Of a stretch of 64,000 nucleotides of DNA, positions 50,516-59,088 are shown piece by piece; positions within the stretch are counted from its first letter, which is position 1; every line of letters starts with the position of its first letter. Where the stretch lies: the IMG/VR virus record IMGVR_UViG_3300045988_044066; one strand, written 5' to 3'. The notes below the pieces were generated by a model that saw only the letters and a list, made by a program, of their open reading frames with translations, was not told where the DNA came from and ran no database searches. Origin of the DNA: a virus. A program made the translations under genes and the position numbers.

Positions 50516-51318
50516 CTAGGAACTAATGCTTTAGAGATTTGTCCAATCGTTAGAGTTAATAGATTTAATATCTGACATCCTAGTGGGAAGATTGTAACTT
50601 TTACACCATCTTCTAACCGCGTTATCTGATACACCAAAATCTTTACCGATTTGAACGAATGATTTTGTTCTAATTAATTCTTTCAGCTCCTCTTTCGAGG
50701 GCCATTCAGTCTTTCTAGAAGACAATCTATAACACTCTACACACATAATACCGTCCTTAGATACTGGATTGCGGTGACATTTAACACAGATGTGTTCTTT
50801 GTGTGCAATTGTGCTCTCTGTAATACTAGAACTACATTCCTCGGAACAGAAAGAAGTTTTGACCTTATGTCCGAGCATATTCTCTAATAGATAATCTTCT
50901 GCTTTATTGTAAACATTACTGCCATTGGTAGGAGGTTTAAGTCGTAGCGTCTTACTAGTTGAACATTCAGACACCGGAATTAAATATACCTTACCATCGT
51001 AAGCTGTTGCAAAATAATCTATTTGAGACTCATCATATCTCCTACGGACTGTTTCTTTAGTATTAGTAGTCTGCGTAACTGTACTAAAATGAAACGCATC
51101 TAAATCTCTAATTCCATTCTTAATAGGATTACTTGAAGACTTGCATTGAACTCTAAGAAGTTCATCACCCACATCTACTATTATGTCATATCTGGAGTTG
51201 TCTCCATAGGGAATTGAGCAATCAAATCCCATCGACATGAATCCTATAAGACAGGTTAATTCCGTAATATTACCTTTAGATTTTGTATAATCCATATGTT
51301 ATACTCTAAAGTTTAGTT
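50516..51318 (-). mobile_element. ~803-nt insertion (putative group I intron or homing-endonuclease insertion) in the anticodon loop of tRNA-Pro(TGG), between G37 and A38 (ambiguous by 1 nt)
   Basis: Joining the 5' and 3' halves gives a canonical 73-nt cloverleaf. The insertion RNA ends in ...GUUCCUAG (terminal G) and carries ORF 50531-51295 on the same strand. Confidence 0.5.
50531..51295 (-). CDS. endonuclease-like ORF inside the tRNA-Pro insertion (N-terminal PD-(D/E)xK-like motif, CxxC..CxxC zinc ribbon, C-terminal helix-turn-helix)
   Basis: RYDIIVDVGDELLRVQCK (D...E.K motif), HICVKCH...CVECY, and C-terminus ELKELIRTKSFVQIGKDFGVSDNAVRRWCKSY (HTH). Confidence 0.5.
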   Translation of the reverse strand: MDYTKSKGNITELTCLIGFMSMGFDCSIPYGDNSRYDIIVDVGDELLRVQCKSSSNPIKNGIRDLDAFHFSTVTQTTNTKETVRRRYDESQIDYFATAYDGKVYLIPVSECSTSKTLRLKPPTNGSNVYNKAEDYLLENMLGHKVKTSFCSEECSSSITESTIAHKEHICVKCHRNPVSKDGIMCVECYRLSSRKTEWPSKEELKELIRTKSFVQIGKDFGVSDNAVRRWCKSYNLPTRMSDIKSINSNDWTNL

Positions 51319-51701: not shown

Positions 51702-51704
51702 AAG

Positions 51705-51776
51705 TGCCCCATGTTGGACTCGAACCAACGCCATACAAGTTTAGAATTTGCTCTTCTACCACTGAAGTAATGGGGC
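51705..51776 (-). tRNA. amber-suppressor tRNA-Sup(CTA)
   Basis: 72-nt cloverleaf: GCCCCAT-TA-CTTC-AGTGGTA-GAAG-A-GCAAA-TTCTAAA-CTTGT-ATGGC-GTTGG-TTCGAGT-CCAAC-ATGGGGC-A. Anticodon 5'-CUA-3' reads UAG. Confidence 0.6.
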
Positions 51777-55789: not shown

Positions 55790-56169
55790 CTCTTTGTTTA
55801 AATTTATTGTTATGAGAGTCTTTCTTTATTCTAAACAATAAACAAGCGGCATTACGGCAATCGGACATACGTTAACCCGCTCGCCACTTACAGACCGTAA
55901 TGCACACTTGACCAGGCAGGAAAGAGGTTTGCTTGGTGACCTATCTGCATGCTGATTATATAATGCAGACCGTGTAGATTCTCTCTTACACAATATCTAT
56001 AGTAGATTTGCACTACTGTTTTCTGATGCTTAATCAGGTGAACTCCTACTGTTCGAATAGATACAGGTTTCAACTCTTTGATATAGCCTTTAAGTCATAG
56101 ACATACTCCGGAATATGTCTACTGGTTCTTCAGACCAAGTTTTGCTACCACTATTCGTCAATAGTGGAT

Positions 56170-57667: not shown

Positions 57668-58017
57668 TTTAATAGTTCCAATTTAGCTACGTCCTTATCA
57701 TACCATATCCCAATCCAGAAGTTGTCTACAAAGTTCCTATGATTCATGATGGTATAATTAAGCCTTAAGACATCACTAGATATAAGATAGTAATTCTTCC
57801 TATCAGTAGCCTCCAATGTTTCTTTGAGCACTGCGTGCTTGCCAATAATTTGAATATTCCTTGTAATAGCGAATGGTAATGAAATCGCTGCCCCAACTGT
57901 TGCTATTGAGAATACAATCTCAACTGCCACTGCAACTTCTCTTAGGTCTTTAGACCCTACTCGCGAAAGACATACACAAATAAGTAAAACAATCACTGCA
58001 ATAATAAATAATCCCAT
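57664..58017 (-). CDS. hypothetical membrane protein (N-terminal TM)
   Basis: MGLFIIAVIVLLICVCLS... Confidence 0.4.
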   Translation of the reverse strand: MGLFIIAVIVLLICVCLSRVGSKDLREVAVAVEIVFSIATVGAAISLPFAITRNIQIIGKHAVLKETLEATDRKNYYLISSDVLRLNYTIMNHRNFVDNFWIGIWYDKDVAKLELLK

Positions 58018-58034
58018 AAAATTGATATTTAAAC

Positions 58035-58587
58035 GTTAATAATAGTGGACCTAGGCGGAGTCGAACCGCCGTCCAAACAACCCTCATTAATAAGATTACG
58101 TGTGTCTCTATTTTATTACATCAGCTGTTGAGTTCAGCATGTAGGTAGTTTTACTAGTCTTATCTTGGAACCAGGTAATTAGGCTGCAATAGCCAAACCA
58201 GTACACCAAAAGCTAATTTACAAACTACCAAACTTAAAGGTTCAGAAGCTGACGCTTCCAAACCTGGGCTGACCGAAGTCGCTCTTCCACCACTCCATTT
58301 ACGTTGGAGAACGTTTCTATTTGTAACCCATAGATAGGTAGTGGAGATTTCAGCTTTACTAACCTTTGGCTTTCAAGTTAAGTGGGCTGCTCTATACGCT
58401 TCTTCCCACACCTCTTCTGTTTCTAGGTCTCTCCAATTAACCCGACTTAGAGCTAAATTAATAGATAAGCCAGCAGCTTAGGCTGCCATTCTTACTTCAG
58501 TGTTTCCACTTAAATTGCTGTATCATTATTAAAGAGTTGGTACGAACTCTACACGTCTTACTAACTTGTAATCGCCTGTCAAAACCA
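58035..58587 (-). ncRNA. ssrA: tmRNA (ssrA-like); unusually long at ~553 nt; predicted tag ...GNTEVRMAA*
   Basis: 5' end GGGCCUAGAUUUGGUUUUGACAGGCG resembles the consensus GGGGCUGAUUCUGGAUUCGACGGG. 3' end ...UUUGGAC-GGCGG-UUCGACU-CCGCC-UAGGUCC-A. Acceptor GGGCCUA/UAGGUCC. In-frame AUG-GCA-GCC-UAA ends ~120 nt from the 5' end. Confidence 0.55.
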
Positions 58588-58734
58588 AATCTAGGCCCAT
58601 AGAACGGCATGATTATCCTCTCATGCCAGGAGGTCTCTCAAACCTGAACAAAAAAGCTATCAGTATCTTCCTGTGCTACATTGAGTAGCGTACCCATTAC
58701 AGACTTAATAGCCTAGGAGTTATTTTTATTCCAT

Positions 58735-59088
58735 TTAAAATGGTAAGTTCCCTTCATGTTTCATCCAACTATAAACTACAATTTCATAATCTGGGAAATC
58801 GTTGGCAAGTTTAATACAACTGTCAAACGATAACTCTGTTATGCATATAAGAGGGTAATCATTGTCAAGCCATTCTCTAATTACATCCTTATCAGGAATA
58901 TGCTCATCCAATGACCATTTAAGCTCACGTTCAAGTCTTTCACGTATCGTATTTAATTTAATATGGTCATGTGTTCCATATATAACATTTAATATGTAAT
59001 ACAATAAATGGCTATTGAACTTATCAACATCGCTAATAAGAATATGCCTCTTGGCATTCCTTAAAGAATTAACTGCATTCTGATTCAT
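58735..59088 (-). CDS. hypothetical protein
   Basis: 117-aa ORF. Confidence 0.4.
   Translation of the reverse strand: MNQNAVNSLRNAKRHILISDVDKFNSHLLYYILNVIYGTHDHIKLNTIRERLERELKWSLDEHIPDKDVIREWLDNDYPLICITELSFDSCIKLANDFPDYEIVVYSWMKHEGNLPF

Follow-up and report, generated by a model that had tools for sequence, protein, structure and literature searches.

The 64,000-nt stretch of viral DNA analysed here (IMG/VR record IMGVR_UViG_3300045988_044066; hereafter, the window) contains a complete, one-piece tmRNA (ssrA) gene of exceptional length. Judging from its sequence features, the gene very probably encodes a functional, standard and intron-less tmRNA of a large, virulent-type human gut phage, probably a myovirus infecting Bacteroidota. 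Phage tmRNAs are already known; the present family is an oversized form with a mosaic middle.

The Rfam tmRNA model RF00023 fits the gene end to end (58043–58598, minus strand; model positions 1–374; 83.7 bits, E 5e-31, against a gathering score of 47), as the first-pass annotation had anticipated when it proposed a covariance-model check, and one relative (L104) scores 69.9 bits. That annotation had read the 5′ end as GGGCCUAGAUUUGGUUUUGACAGGCG and the 3′ end as GGAC followed by a T arm, the acceptor strand UAGGUCC, and a discriminator A, with the two ends pairing 7/7. All of these features are present; however, its coordinates (58035–58587) were 11 nt too low, the true gene occupying 58046–58598 (Table 1). 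The bases after the discriminator A are CUA, and thus CCA is not encoded by the gene. The gene recurs at 99.8% identity on an independent contig (L036), and this rules out an assembly artefact.

Table 1. Features of the phage tmRNA gene and its upstream region, in window and RNA coordinates.
Feature	Window position	Strand	RNA position	Remarks
tmRNA (ssrA) gene, complete, one-piece	58046..58598	-	1-553	553 nt, G1 to discriminator A
Promoter-like TTGAGA-18-GATAAT (58641-58612) and overlapping hairpin GGCATGA...TCATGCC (58606-58627)	58606..58641	-		
Acceptor stem, 5′ strand GGGCCUA	58592..58598	-	1-7	pairs 7/7 with 58047-58053; contains G3 of G3:U70
Helix 2, 5′ strand	58551..58578	-	21-48	pairs with 58074-58103
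Pseudoknot 1 (PK1)	58520..58550	-	stem 1 49-54/61-66; stem 2 loop 56-58 with 77-79	Rfam alignment and covariation
Tag frame, resume codon GGA to stop UAA	58478..58507	-	GGA 92-94; UAA 119-121	Rfam alignment; ARAGORN on shortened constructs
Helix 5 region	58444..58486	-	113-117/122-126; 128-133/150-155	first hairpin has the stop codon in its loop; second hairpin follows
Expanded middle domain	58144..58443	-	156-455	in place of canonical PK2-PK3
Conserved blocks of middle			155-189, 218-256, 286-313, 365-381	
Variable modules of middle			B 190-217, C 257-285, D 314-335, E 382-446	
Optional 12-bp hairpin AGGUUUGGAAGC GUCA GCUUCUGAACCU plus UUA	58235..58265	-		part of 31-nt unit
Second GCAGCCUAA, tip of hairpin GGCU-AUUGC-AGCC in module E	58179..58187	-		not conserved
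Last pseudoknot, PK4-like	58106..58143	-	stem 1 456-464/472-482; stem 2 loop 467-469 with 491-493	
Helix 2, 3′ strand	58074..58103	-	496-525	pairs with 58551-58578
T arm GGCGG UUCGACU CCGCC, acceptor 3′ strand UAGGUCC, discriminator A	58046..58070	-	529-553	

Eighty complete relatives of the gene, 65 of them unique and 507–601 nt in length, were found in gut phage contigs, and the conservation and covariation of the tRNA-like domain, helix 2, PK1, tag frame, and stop-codon hairpin across the 65 unique sequences uphold the identification as a tmRNA. The helices were proposed by hand and then scored on these sequences: the whole helix model is 84% paired, versus 38%–46% when partners are slid, and the observed covariation was reached by none of 500 shuffles. 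An automatic search for helices by column covariation failed (noisy when G-U pairs were admitted, too strict when they were not) owing to the lack of homology among the variable modules.

Within the tRNA-like domain, the acceptor stem exists in four compensating variants (GGGCCUA/UAGGUCC, GGGCCUG/CAGGUCC, GGGCUUG/CAAGUCC, and GGGCCAU/AUGGUCC) among relatives that were extracted only if this stem paired 7/7, and G3:U is invariant in all of them. G3:U70 is the alanine identity pair. In the T stem, the 65 sequences are all fully paired and both partners vary in 4/5 pairs; the T loop is intact (GGUUCGACUCC). There is no anticodon arm; instead, the long helix 2 links the tRNA-like domain to the remainder of the molecule, with 95%–100% of cells paired and both-side changes in 12 pairs, which brings the doubly changed pairs of helix 2 and the T arm together to 16. 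PK1 stem 1 has four core pairs that do not vary and that form in 65/65 sequences. PK1 stem 2 is paired in 26 of the 30 sequences with a long loop, changing from U-A to C-G in three, and is weak in the 35 short-loop relatives. At the other end of the molecule, the PK4-like pseudoknot has 96% and 100% of cells paired in its two stems, with a compensatory C-G to U-A change of stem 2 in one relative (L069). Upstream of the gene lies a candidate promoter or processing signal, the hairpin of which stops 8 nt short of the mature 5′ end; relatives have other hairpins, built from different stems, in its place.

The tag frame, GGA AAC ACU GAA GUA AGA AUG GCA GCC UAA, encodes GNTEVRMAA and hence a full tag of A-GNTEVRMAA, in agreement with the earlier reading of an in-frame AUG GCA GCC UAA near 120 nt from the 5′ end. 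Each of the 65 unique sequences keeps it intact. The family includes at least 14 versions of the tag, every one ending (R/K)MAA; codons vary synonymously (GGA/GGC and GCC/GCU/GCG), indels are multiples of 3, and the stop codon is UAA in 62 sequences, UGA in three, and UAG in none. The hairpin that presents the stop codon is paired in 100% of cells and the second hairpin of the helix 5 region in 90%. Comparison with Bacteroidetes tags, another suggestion of the first-pass annotation, revealed a resemblance between phage tags such as GNTTYRMAA and GETEGYLRMAA and the Bacteroides tag GETNYALAA. The second GCAGCCUAA that had been noted is indeed present, but it forms the tip of a covarying hairpin and is lost in relatives, where GAUCAC-UGUGAUU, GCUGC-UGCAGC, or unrelated modules take its site; it was therefore rejected as a second tag.

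Retention of a coding tag bears directly on the possibility that the RNA is a decoy or inhibitor, binding host SmpB or ribosomes and thereby blocking host trans-translation. Such a role has a reported precedent in mycobacteriophage DS6A, whose RNA consists of a tRNA-like domain only; expression of this type of RNA in E. coli inhibits tmRNA (PMC4131195, PMC11915505). The oversized middle might impede ribosome passage, and no smpB was found among the 87 open reading frames (ORFs) of the window, in a genome that is probably ~95–190 kb as a whole. A decoy would, however, need neither coding constraint on the tag, which is evident in 65/65 sequences, nor PK1 and the sequence directly before the resume codon, both of which are retained. 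The decoy explanation is thus very unlikely.

At 553 nt, the tmRNA is well above the 353–413 nt of 88 Bacteroidales-type tmRNAs, bearing out the earlier remark on its unusual length, and is ~160 nt longer than the tmRNAs of likely Bacteroides-type hosts. A survey from 2005 gave ~350 nt as typical and 425 nt as the longest (PMC1168896). The extra length is confined to the region that follows the stop codon and precedes the 3′ strand of helix 2, with a median of 373 nt versus 209 nt in the 88 Bacteroidales-type tmRNAs. Extra pseudoknots or an inserted element had been proposed as its source; this was about right, in that the region is an expanded, multi-helix middle with optional modules. ARAGORN, which had also been recommended as a check, did not call the 553-nt gene in the window, yet it calls a tmRNA with the tag GNTEVRMAA after in silico removal of ~190–210 nt from the middle, and this deletion series attributes the miss to length alone. 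Only 3/80 relatives were called, each with a wrong tag.

The middle consists of conserved blocks alternating with variable modules. Column identity is 0.86–0.96 in the conserved blocks, versus 0.76–0.85 in the tRNA-like domain. Several helices are supported: 165–169/252–256 (88% paired, both-side changes in four pairs), 290–294/302–306 (96% paired), 370–377/448–455 (98% paired), and the hairpin 315–321/326–333, which covaries. The elements within the conserved blocks include the loops AGAAACAGAAG, GAAAGCCAA, and ACGUAAA and the run GUGGUGG. Pyrimidine-rich complements to GUGGUGG (RNA 306–312) follow the 252–256 strand in most module types, but no more often than in shuffles, and these candidate partners clash with other supported pairs. 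Two further pairings compete, GGGU(156–159)/ACCU(171–174) versus ACCU/AGGU(186–189), between which covariation cannot choose because all three segments are nearly invariant. The middle has no sequence similarity to the 88 Bacteroidales-type tmRNAs; across it, the RF00023 alignment has poor posterior probabilities and contains many non-canonical pairs, neither PK2 nor PK3 can be recognised, and the middle folded alone is no better than shuffles (z = −1.07).

Between the conserved blocks, hairpin modules are interchangeable and reassort among relatives, recombining between related phages. The 31-nt hairpin unit, for example, occurs in zero, one, or two tandem copies, and L061 and L063, both close relatives at 91% identity, are among those without it; its 12-bp hairpin was flagged as terminator-like by a terminator scan. 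This optional and interchangeable character of the 31-nt hairpin and of modules B, C, and E would also suit a precursor, from which part of the middle is excised or in which it is cleaved (e.g., by RNase III at long hairpins), so that the mature tmRNA would be shorter or in two pieces and the great length would belong to the gene alone. The long perfect hairpins at RNA 334–361 and 370–455 are plausible targets for a double-strand nuclease, and permuted tmRNAs show that two-piece forms are workable (PMC11915505). Nevertheless, the conserved blocks exceed the tRNA-like domain in conservation, and for this reason they are probably retained in the working molecule. Gene order is standard, and the RF04321 scores of 24.5 and 12.5 bits both fall below the gathering score of 47, on which grounds a permuted two-piece form was rejected. 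A group I intron form was likewise discarded, as the T loop is uninterrupted and neither Intron_gpI nor any other ribozyme matched at E values up to 10; across 58000–58650, a permissive Rfam scan to the same E value found no fitting family besides tmRNA, only noise. A processed precursor is accordingly considered unlikely, and a one-piece tmRNA that keeps its middle remains the preferred reading.

The phage origin asserted by the first-pass annotation is borne out by the surroundings of the gene. The window contains ~28 tRNA genes along with phage-type replication and nucleotide-metabolism genes, and one 670-aa ORF shares 47% identity with large-myovirus proteins. The closest matches of this ORF are in large myoviruses such as Bacillus phage TsarBomba and Vi1-like phages, and a crAss-like phage was therefore rejected. 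The relatives are carried by ~80 viral contigs of 95–270 kb, in which the tmRNA sits among phage tRNAs; tRNA genes occur in the examined flanks of 74/79 relatives, and some directly abut the tmRNA. A weak match to Pfam Ribosomal_L12 was seen in the window. Searches of the window ORFs with phmmer, using approximate E. coli L7/L12 and SmpB queries, gave no match.

tmRNA genes frequently serve as integration sites, and fragments of ssrA are often found in prophages (PMC9004378); host DNA, be it a host ssrA acquired when a prophage excised imprecisely, the remnant of an attachment site, or bacterial sequence joined on by misassembly, is therefore an alternative source to be weighed, the more so as two relatives lie in bins labelled as bacterial metagenome-assembled genomes (MAGs). 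These two MAG contigs are, however, themselves tRNA-rich and phage-like, and a core 19-mer sought across 185,579 species genomes matched only them and three chance sites lacking a tmRNA, with no further relative. The gene is full length and no 3′ fragment, its middle is unlike that of the 88 Bacteroidales-type tmRNAs, and the ~80 viral contigs carry it among phage tRNAs. A host origin is thus extremely improbable. Regarding the host itself, Bacteroidetes, as proposed earlier, are plausible given the GETNYALAA-like tags and the scarcity of Shine-Dalgarno-like motifs (before only 5/87 window ORFs, which is below background), but the labels of the two MAGs, Clostridium and Muribaculaceae, conflict.

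In the proposed mechanism, the tmRNA would be transcribed inside the tRNA-rich region of the phage, trimmed by host tRNA-processing enzymes, supplied with CCA by the host CCA-adding enzyme, and charged with alanine by host alanyl-tRNA synthetase via G3:U70. It would then bind SmpB, assumed to be that of the host because no smpB was found in the 64-kb window. The charged tmRNA would enter ribosomes that have stalled where a broken or stop-less mRNA ends; on these, translation would restart at GGA, append A-GNTEVRMAA, and end at UAA, freeing the ribosome and marking the protein. Most likely, the phage would in this way supplement ribosome-rescue capacity during infection, beside its ~28 tRNAs.

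More doubtful is the suggestion that the expanded middle is a phage-specific working part and no tolerated spacer. This reading draws on core blocks that outdo the tRNA-like domain in conservation and on tags that end (R/K)MAA rather than ALAA. The RNA could attract a particular factor of host or phage origin (ribosomal protein S1, a nuclease, and a protease adaptor are examples), and it could consign the proteins it tags to another fate than that of proteins carrying the host tag. The tmRNA could also serve stop-codon suppression by the phage itself, an idea prompted by a tRNA with anticodon CUA in the window and by a tag stop that is never UAG; if so, rescue would be needed for ribosomes that pass host UAG stops and run off message ends. 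No signal of stop-codon recoding was detected within the window, where TAG ends 10/87 ORFs and reading TAG as sense yields only small gains in ORF length.

Standard one-piece bacterial tmRNAs (RF00023), and especially those of the Bacteroidales type with the tag GETNYALAA, share with the phage family the G3:U70 tRNA-like domain with its T arm and UUUGAC motif, PK1, and a long helix 2 whose 3′ strand is preceded by a last pseudoknot. In both, the tag has nine codons, beginning with Gly and ending in AA, and its stop codon lies in the loop of a hairpin. The phage family differs in its length (507–601 nt versus 353–413 nt), in being phage-carried, in tags that end RMAA or KMAA rather than the ALAA of Bacteroides, and in a modular middle whose core blocks surpass the tRNA-like domain in conservation, whereas host tmRNAs show the opposite. 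Known phage tmRNAs include those of the mycobacteriophage Bxz1 group, Bacillus phage G, Melnitz, and huge phages (PMC4131195, PMC7162821, PMC9004378), with which the present family has in common a large, tRNA-rich phage genome, a presumed dependence on host or phage SmpB, and a proposed role in sustaining translation. The tmRNA of the marine phage Melnitz is permuted into two pieces, and Melnitz carries a riboswitch, whereas the present gene is one-piece; DS6A has a tRNA-like domain alone, whereas the present gene is a full tmRNA with a tag frame. In intron-containing tmRNA genes, a group I intron lies in the T loop, whereas here the extra sequence is in the pseudoknot region.

Unlike the present family, known phage tmRNAs were found with ARAGORN. 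A survey using this program reported tmRNAs in 2.3% of 18,146 phage genomes (PMC9004378), and a survey of huge phages was also ARAGORN-based. Such surveys miss this gut-phage family, and phage tmRNAs are therefore under-counted; covariance models should complement ARAGORN in phage annotation. The family further indicates that the pseudoknot region of a tmRNA can nearly double in size and be reshuffled by recombination with no disruption of the tRNA-like domain or the tag. Parts of this expansion are under stronger constraint than the tRNA-like domain, which would be unexpected of mere scaffolding. Finally, the phage-specific tag ending, in what are probably phages of Bacteroidota, offers a testable handle on whether phage tmRNAs serve ribosome upkeep or redirected protein degradation.

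The minus-strand tmRNA (ssrA) gene has the 553 nt claimed for it in the first-pass annotation, which had placed it 11 nt too low (coordinates are collected in the table). On reading the minus strand of 57900-58750, every feature listed in that annotation was found: the RNA begins with GGGCCUAGAUUUGGUUUUGACAGGCG and ends with GGAC-GGCGG-UUCGACU-CCGCC-UAGGUCC-A, these ends pair 7/7 in an acceptor stem with G:U as pair three, and the tag frame runs GGA AAC ACU GAA GUA AGA AUG GCA GCC UAA. The discriminator is followed directly by CUA, and thus CCA is not encoded by the gene. The Rfam tmRNA model RF00023, a check proposed at first pass, fits over its full length at 83.7 bits (E 5e-31; gathering score 47). 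Searched permissively with all 4227 Rfam families, the region gave nothing else of note, with no group I intron match and the permuted-tmRNA model under threshold at 24.5 bits.

Exact-motif scans of IMG/VR with two motifs, taken from the tag end and from mid-RNA, yielded 74 and 72 loci. Of the 98 distinct loci, 94 hold a tmRNA homologue. These lie on contigs of 17-270 kb, many of ~185-190 kb, with one human-gut data set supplying most. Eighty complete genes (65 unique) were extracted; they measure 507-601 nt and are 68-100% identical to the window gene, and the tmRNA is long in every family member. One relative (L036) is 99.8% identical on a separate contig; hence, an assembly artefact can be excluded. 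A distant BLAST search of GenBank phages found MT837398, an unannotated human-faecal phage scaffold with 68.7% identity over the full length. At two loci (L044 and L100), tmRNA homology stops within the T arm or T loop, with unrelated sequence beyond; this could be a junction left by recombination, a break in the assembly, or an insertion at the T loop, where introns are known.

Several canonical tmRNA parts are present and under selection. When a hand-built helix model was tested on the alignment of the 65 unique sequences, 84% of cells formed a standard pair, compared with 38-46% when 3′ partners were slid by 1-3 columns; 36 pairs changed on both sides, and the observed covariation was reached by none of 500 shuffles. 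Helix 2 is 95-100% paired, with both-sides changes in 12 pairs, and the T stem 100% paired, with such changes in four. The family has four acceptor-stem versions whose changes compensate one another, and G3:U never varies; as extraction of relatives demanded 7/7 acceptor pairing, only this diversity, and not the pairing rate, is informative. In PK1, the first pseudoknot, the four core pairs of stem 1 are invariant; stem 2 forms in 26 of the 30 members with a long loop, three of which have C-G in place of U-A. An invariant 5-bp hairpin carries the stop codon in its loop, as E. coli helix 5 does (PMC1168896). The final, PK4-like pseudoknot is 96-100% paired and shows a single compensatory change, in its loop-tail stem.

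At least 14 tag peptides occupy the aligned resume position across the family: GNTEVRMAA, GNTTYRMAA, GNTRVKMAA, GNTEVKMAA, ANTSVRMAA, AEIAPVRMAA, ATYSEVRMAA, AAYSEVRMAA, AERSDVRMAA, AERSDYRMAA, AERSEYRMAA, AEIDYNRMAA, GETEGFRMAA, and GETEGYLRMAA. The ending (R/K)MAA is invariant, and length varies by whole codons. GNTEVRMAA is itself coded synonymously, with GGA or GGC as the resume codon and GCC, GCU, or GCG for the last alanine; the stop is UAA in 62 sequences, UGA in three, and UAG in none. This variation has the pattern of a translated frame, which counts against the RNA serving as a decoy instead of a tagging tmRNA.

ARAGORN, the other check proposed at first pass, finds 29 tRNA-like genes in the window and no tmRNA. 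Rerun on the gene with its flanks and on in-silico deletions, it makes no call on the full gene or on versions shortened down to 441 nt; when RNA 155-365 or 258-447 is deleted (342 or 363 nt left), it calls a tmRNA with tag GNTEVRMAA at positions 92-121. The miss is a matter of the program's length limit, not of a defective gene, and the calls on the shortened constructs support the tag independently. In three of the 80 relatives ARAGORN does make a call, and in each case the tag it gives is implausible and lies at another place in the RNA.

A 2005 survey put typical tmRNAs at ~350 nt and the longest at 425 nt (PMC1168896), and a 2025 database paper used a 500-bp cut-off plus score to split intron-containing genes from others (PMC11915505). 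For comparison, Bacteroidales-type tmRNAs were obtained by scanning metagenomes with the back-translated native Bacteroides tag, GETNYALAA (bioRxiv 10.1101/2025.03.18.644028); the 88 complete genes measure 353-413 nt (mode 394), all shorter than the phage family. The stretch up to the stop codon is about equally long in both. Measured from the stop codon to a point 60 nt short of the 3′ end, the Bacteroidales type has a median of 209 nt (170-229) and the phage family one of 373 nt (323-418). BLAST finds similarity between the two only in the last 35-65 nt and, weakly, over roughly the first 50 nt, with none detectable in the middle of the phage RNA.

Features of the tmRNA gene and its surroundings (RNA positions count from G1)
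Feature	Window position (strand)	RNA position	Observation
tmRNA gene	58046-58598 (-)	1-553	G1 at 58598, discriminator A at 58046
RF00023 match	58043-58598 (-)		model positions 1-374
Tag stop codon		119-121	UAA
Highly conserved blocks		155-189, 218-256, 286-313, 365-381
Fifth conserved block		447-495	spans 3′ strand of helix 370-377/448-455 and last pseudoknot
Modules B, C, D, E		190-217, 257-285, 314-335, 382-446	replaceable
Helix		165-169/252-256	GGAGA/UCUCC to GGAAGG/CCUUCC or CCUUUC; both strands jointly lost in one member
Helix		260-264/269-273	pair 260:273 is A-U, G-U, or G-C
Helix		290-294/302-306	CUCCA/UGGAG to CUUCA/UGAAG, CCUAC/GUAGG
Hairpin		315-321/326-333	covarying
Helix closing module E		370-377/448-455	G-C to A-U at two pairs
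Second GCAGCCUAA	58179-58187		tip of module E hairpin
Upstream hairpin	58606-58627 (-)		GGCATGA/TCATGCC
RAGATH-34 match	56060-56167 (-)		~2 kb downstream of tmRNA
tRNA, anticodon CUA	51704-51776 (-)		abuts tRNA-Met
PDDEXK_5 ORF	50531-51295 (-)		inside tRNA array
tRNA array	24051-59239 (-)		~28 genes
Overlapping ARAGORN calls	43715-43791 (+), 43730-43818 (-)		opposite strands, probably a false call

Between helix 5 and the last pseudoknot, conserved blocks alternate with replaceable segments. Modules B to E are swapped wholesale for unrelated sequences of other lengths, and a 31-nt hairpin unit occurs in zero, one, or two tandem copies (one in the window). The second GCAGCCUAA reported at first pass does exist; a second tag there was rejected, since relatives carry GAUCAC/GUGAUU, GCUGC/GCAGC, or another module in its place. 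The invariant GGGU, ACCU, and AGGU allow two mutually exclusive pairings that covariation cannot separate, and more than one partner is conceivable for the invariant GUGGUGG. MFE folding, which is blind to pseudoknots, recovered the outer canonical helices of the whole RNA (z = -2.44) and gave no significant result for the middle alone (z = -1.07).

When the RNA was cut into ten segments, each typed at 80% identity, the 65 sequences showed 40 combinations of types, and all four combinations of two types were seen in 39 of 45 segment pairs, a pattern that marks the middle as a recombination mosaic. Column identity in the middle is 0.92-0.96 for the phage core blocks (0.86 for 218-256) and 0.76 for the Bacteroidales set. 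The order is opposite in the tRNA-like domain, at 0.76-0.85 for the phages, whose slightly misaligned 5′ end lowers the value without affecting helix 2 or the T arm, and 0.86-0.93 for the Bacteroidales set; helix 2 gives 0.80-0.82 and 0.86-0.90, respectively. Unexpectedly, conservation in the phage family is thus higher in the core blocks than in the tRNA-like domain, and in the Bacteroidales set the ranking is the other way round. Tagging by E. coli tmRNA survives replacement of PK2-PK4, which would account for the tolerated expansion but not for the strong block conservation.

The window is of phage origin. Its genes include those for several helicases (one DnaB-like), nucleases, an anaerobic ribonucleotide reductase, and adenylosuccinate synthetase; a crAss-like phage was rejected, as a 670-aa ORF shares 47% identity with large-myovirus proteins, e.g., those of Bacillus phage TsarBomba and Vi1-like phages. 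The tRNA genes cover most amino acids, are interleaved with small ORFs, and none appears to encode CCA. tRNA genes also occur in the analysed flanks of 74 of 79 relatives, some beginning 7 nt past the tmRNA or ending just before it, and this arrangement makes co-transcription and tRNA-type processing likely. A promoter-like TTGAGA-18-GATAAT, 14 nt upstream of the mature 5′ end, overlaps the upstream hairpin, which ends 8 nt before that end. Relatives have hairpins with other stems there (GTGCAG/CTGCAC, CCAGTT/AACTGG, and CCCGTC/GACGGG), which in most of those compared enclose (G/T)ATAA(T/C); the hairpin's 22-mer has a single exact occurrence in the window. It may serve as a promoter element or as a signal for processing.

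The RAGATH-34 match, to an orphan structured RNA of unknown function, is full length (120.9 bits; gathering 60.7). Among the 87 ORFs of the window, one weakly matches the ribosomal protein L7/L12 C-terminal domain (PF00542, E 2.3e-5) and may be a phage-encoded ribosomal-protein-like gene; others match Ferritin, Bactofilin, and Peptidase_S24. The PD-(D/E)XK endonuclease ORF (PDDEXK_5, E 1.5e-20) and an HNH endonuclease match may represent homing-type nucleases tied to the tRNA region.

A Bacteroidota host is likely. A Shine-Dalgarno-like 4-mer precedes five of the 87 ORFs, under the 11.8% background, and leaders are A/T-rich in a window of 37.9% GC; scarce Shine-Dalgarno sequences and A/T-rich leaders are typical of Bacteroidota and their phages. 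The native Bacteroides tag resembles the phage tags GNTTYRMAA and GETEGYLRMAA, and at the site of UUCGAC in the Rfam consensus both RNA types read UUUGAC. Scanned over 185,579 species (one genome each), a 19-mer of the conserved core gave five matches: three by chance, without a tmRNA, and two on tRNA-rich, phage-like contigs, one in a MAG labelled Clostridium and the other in one labelled Muribaculaceae. The phage gene is no recent copy of a host gene.

Phage tmRNAs as such are already established, in the mycobacteriophage Bxz1 group and Bacillus phage G (PMC4131195), in huge phages (PMC7162821), and, by an ARAGORN survey, in 2.3% of 18,146 phage genomes (PMC9004378). Compared with the 2005 survey and the 88 Bacteroidales-type genes, what is new is a standard-form family of this length. 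Also new are its middle (almost twice the usual size, modular, and recombining, with strongly conserved blocks), its own tag ending, and its invisibility to the usual detection tool.

Late-infection suppression of UAG is known for other gut phages. The anticodon-CUA tRNA (ARAGORN label 'Pyl') is of the amber-suppressor type and occurs in the analysed flanks of only five relatives (L009, L082, L087, L092, and L093); there is no sign of recoding within the window, where TAG terminates 10 of 87 ORFs. Because the window has this tRNA and the tag never ends in UAG, it is speculated that UAG suppression late in infection might cause read-through of host messages and so raise the need for ribosome rescue. 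Neither SmpB nor a CCA-adding enzyme is among the 87 ORFs of the window, which is part of a genome. On these sequence features, the simplest reading is that the phage supplies a working tmRNA alongside its tRNAs, which would use host AlaRS, SmpB, and CCA-adding enzyme and would keep ribosomes free during infection.
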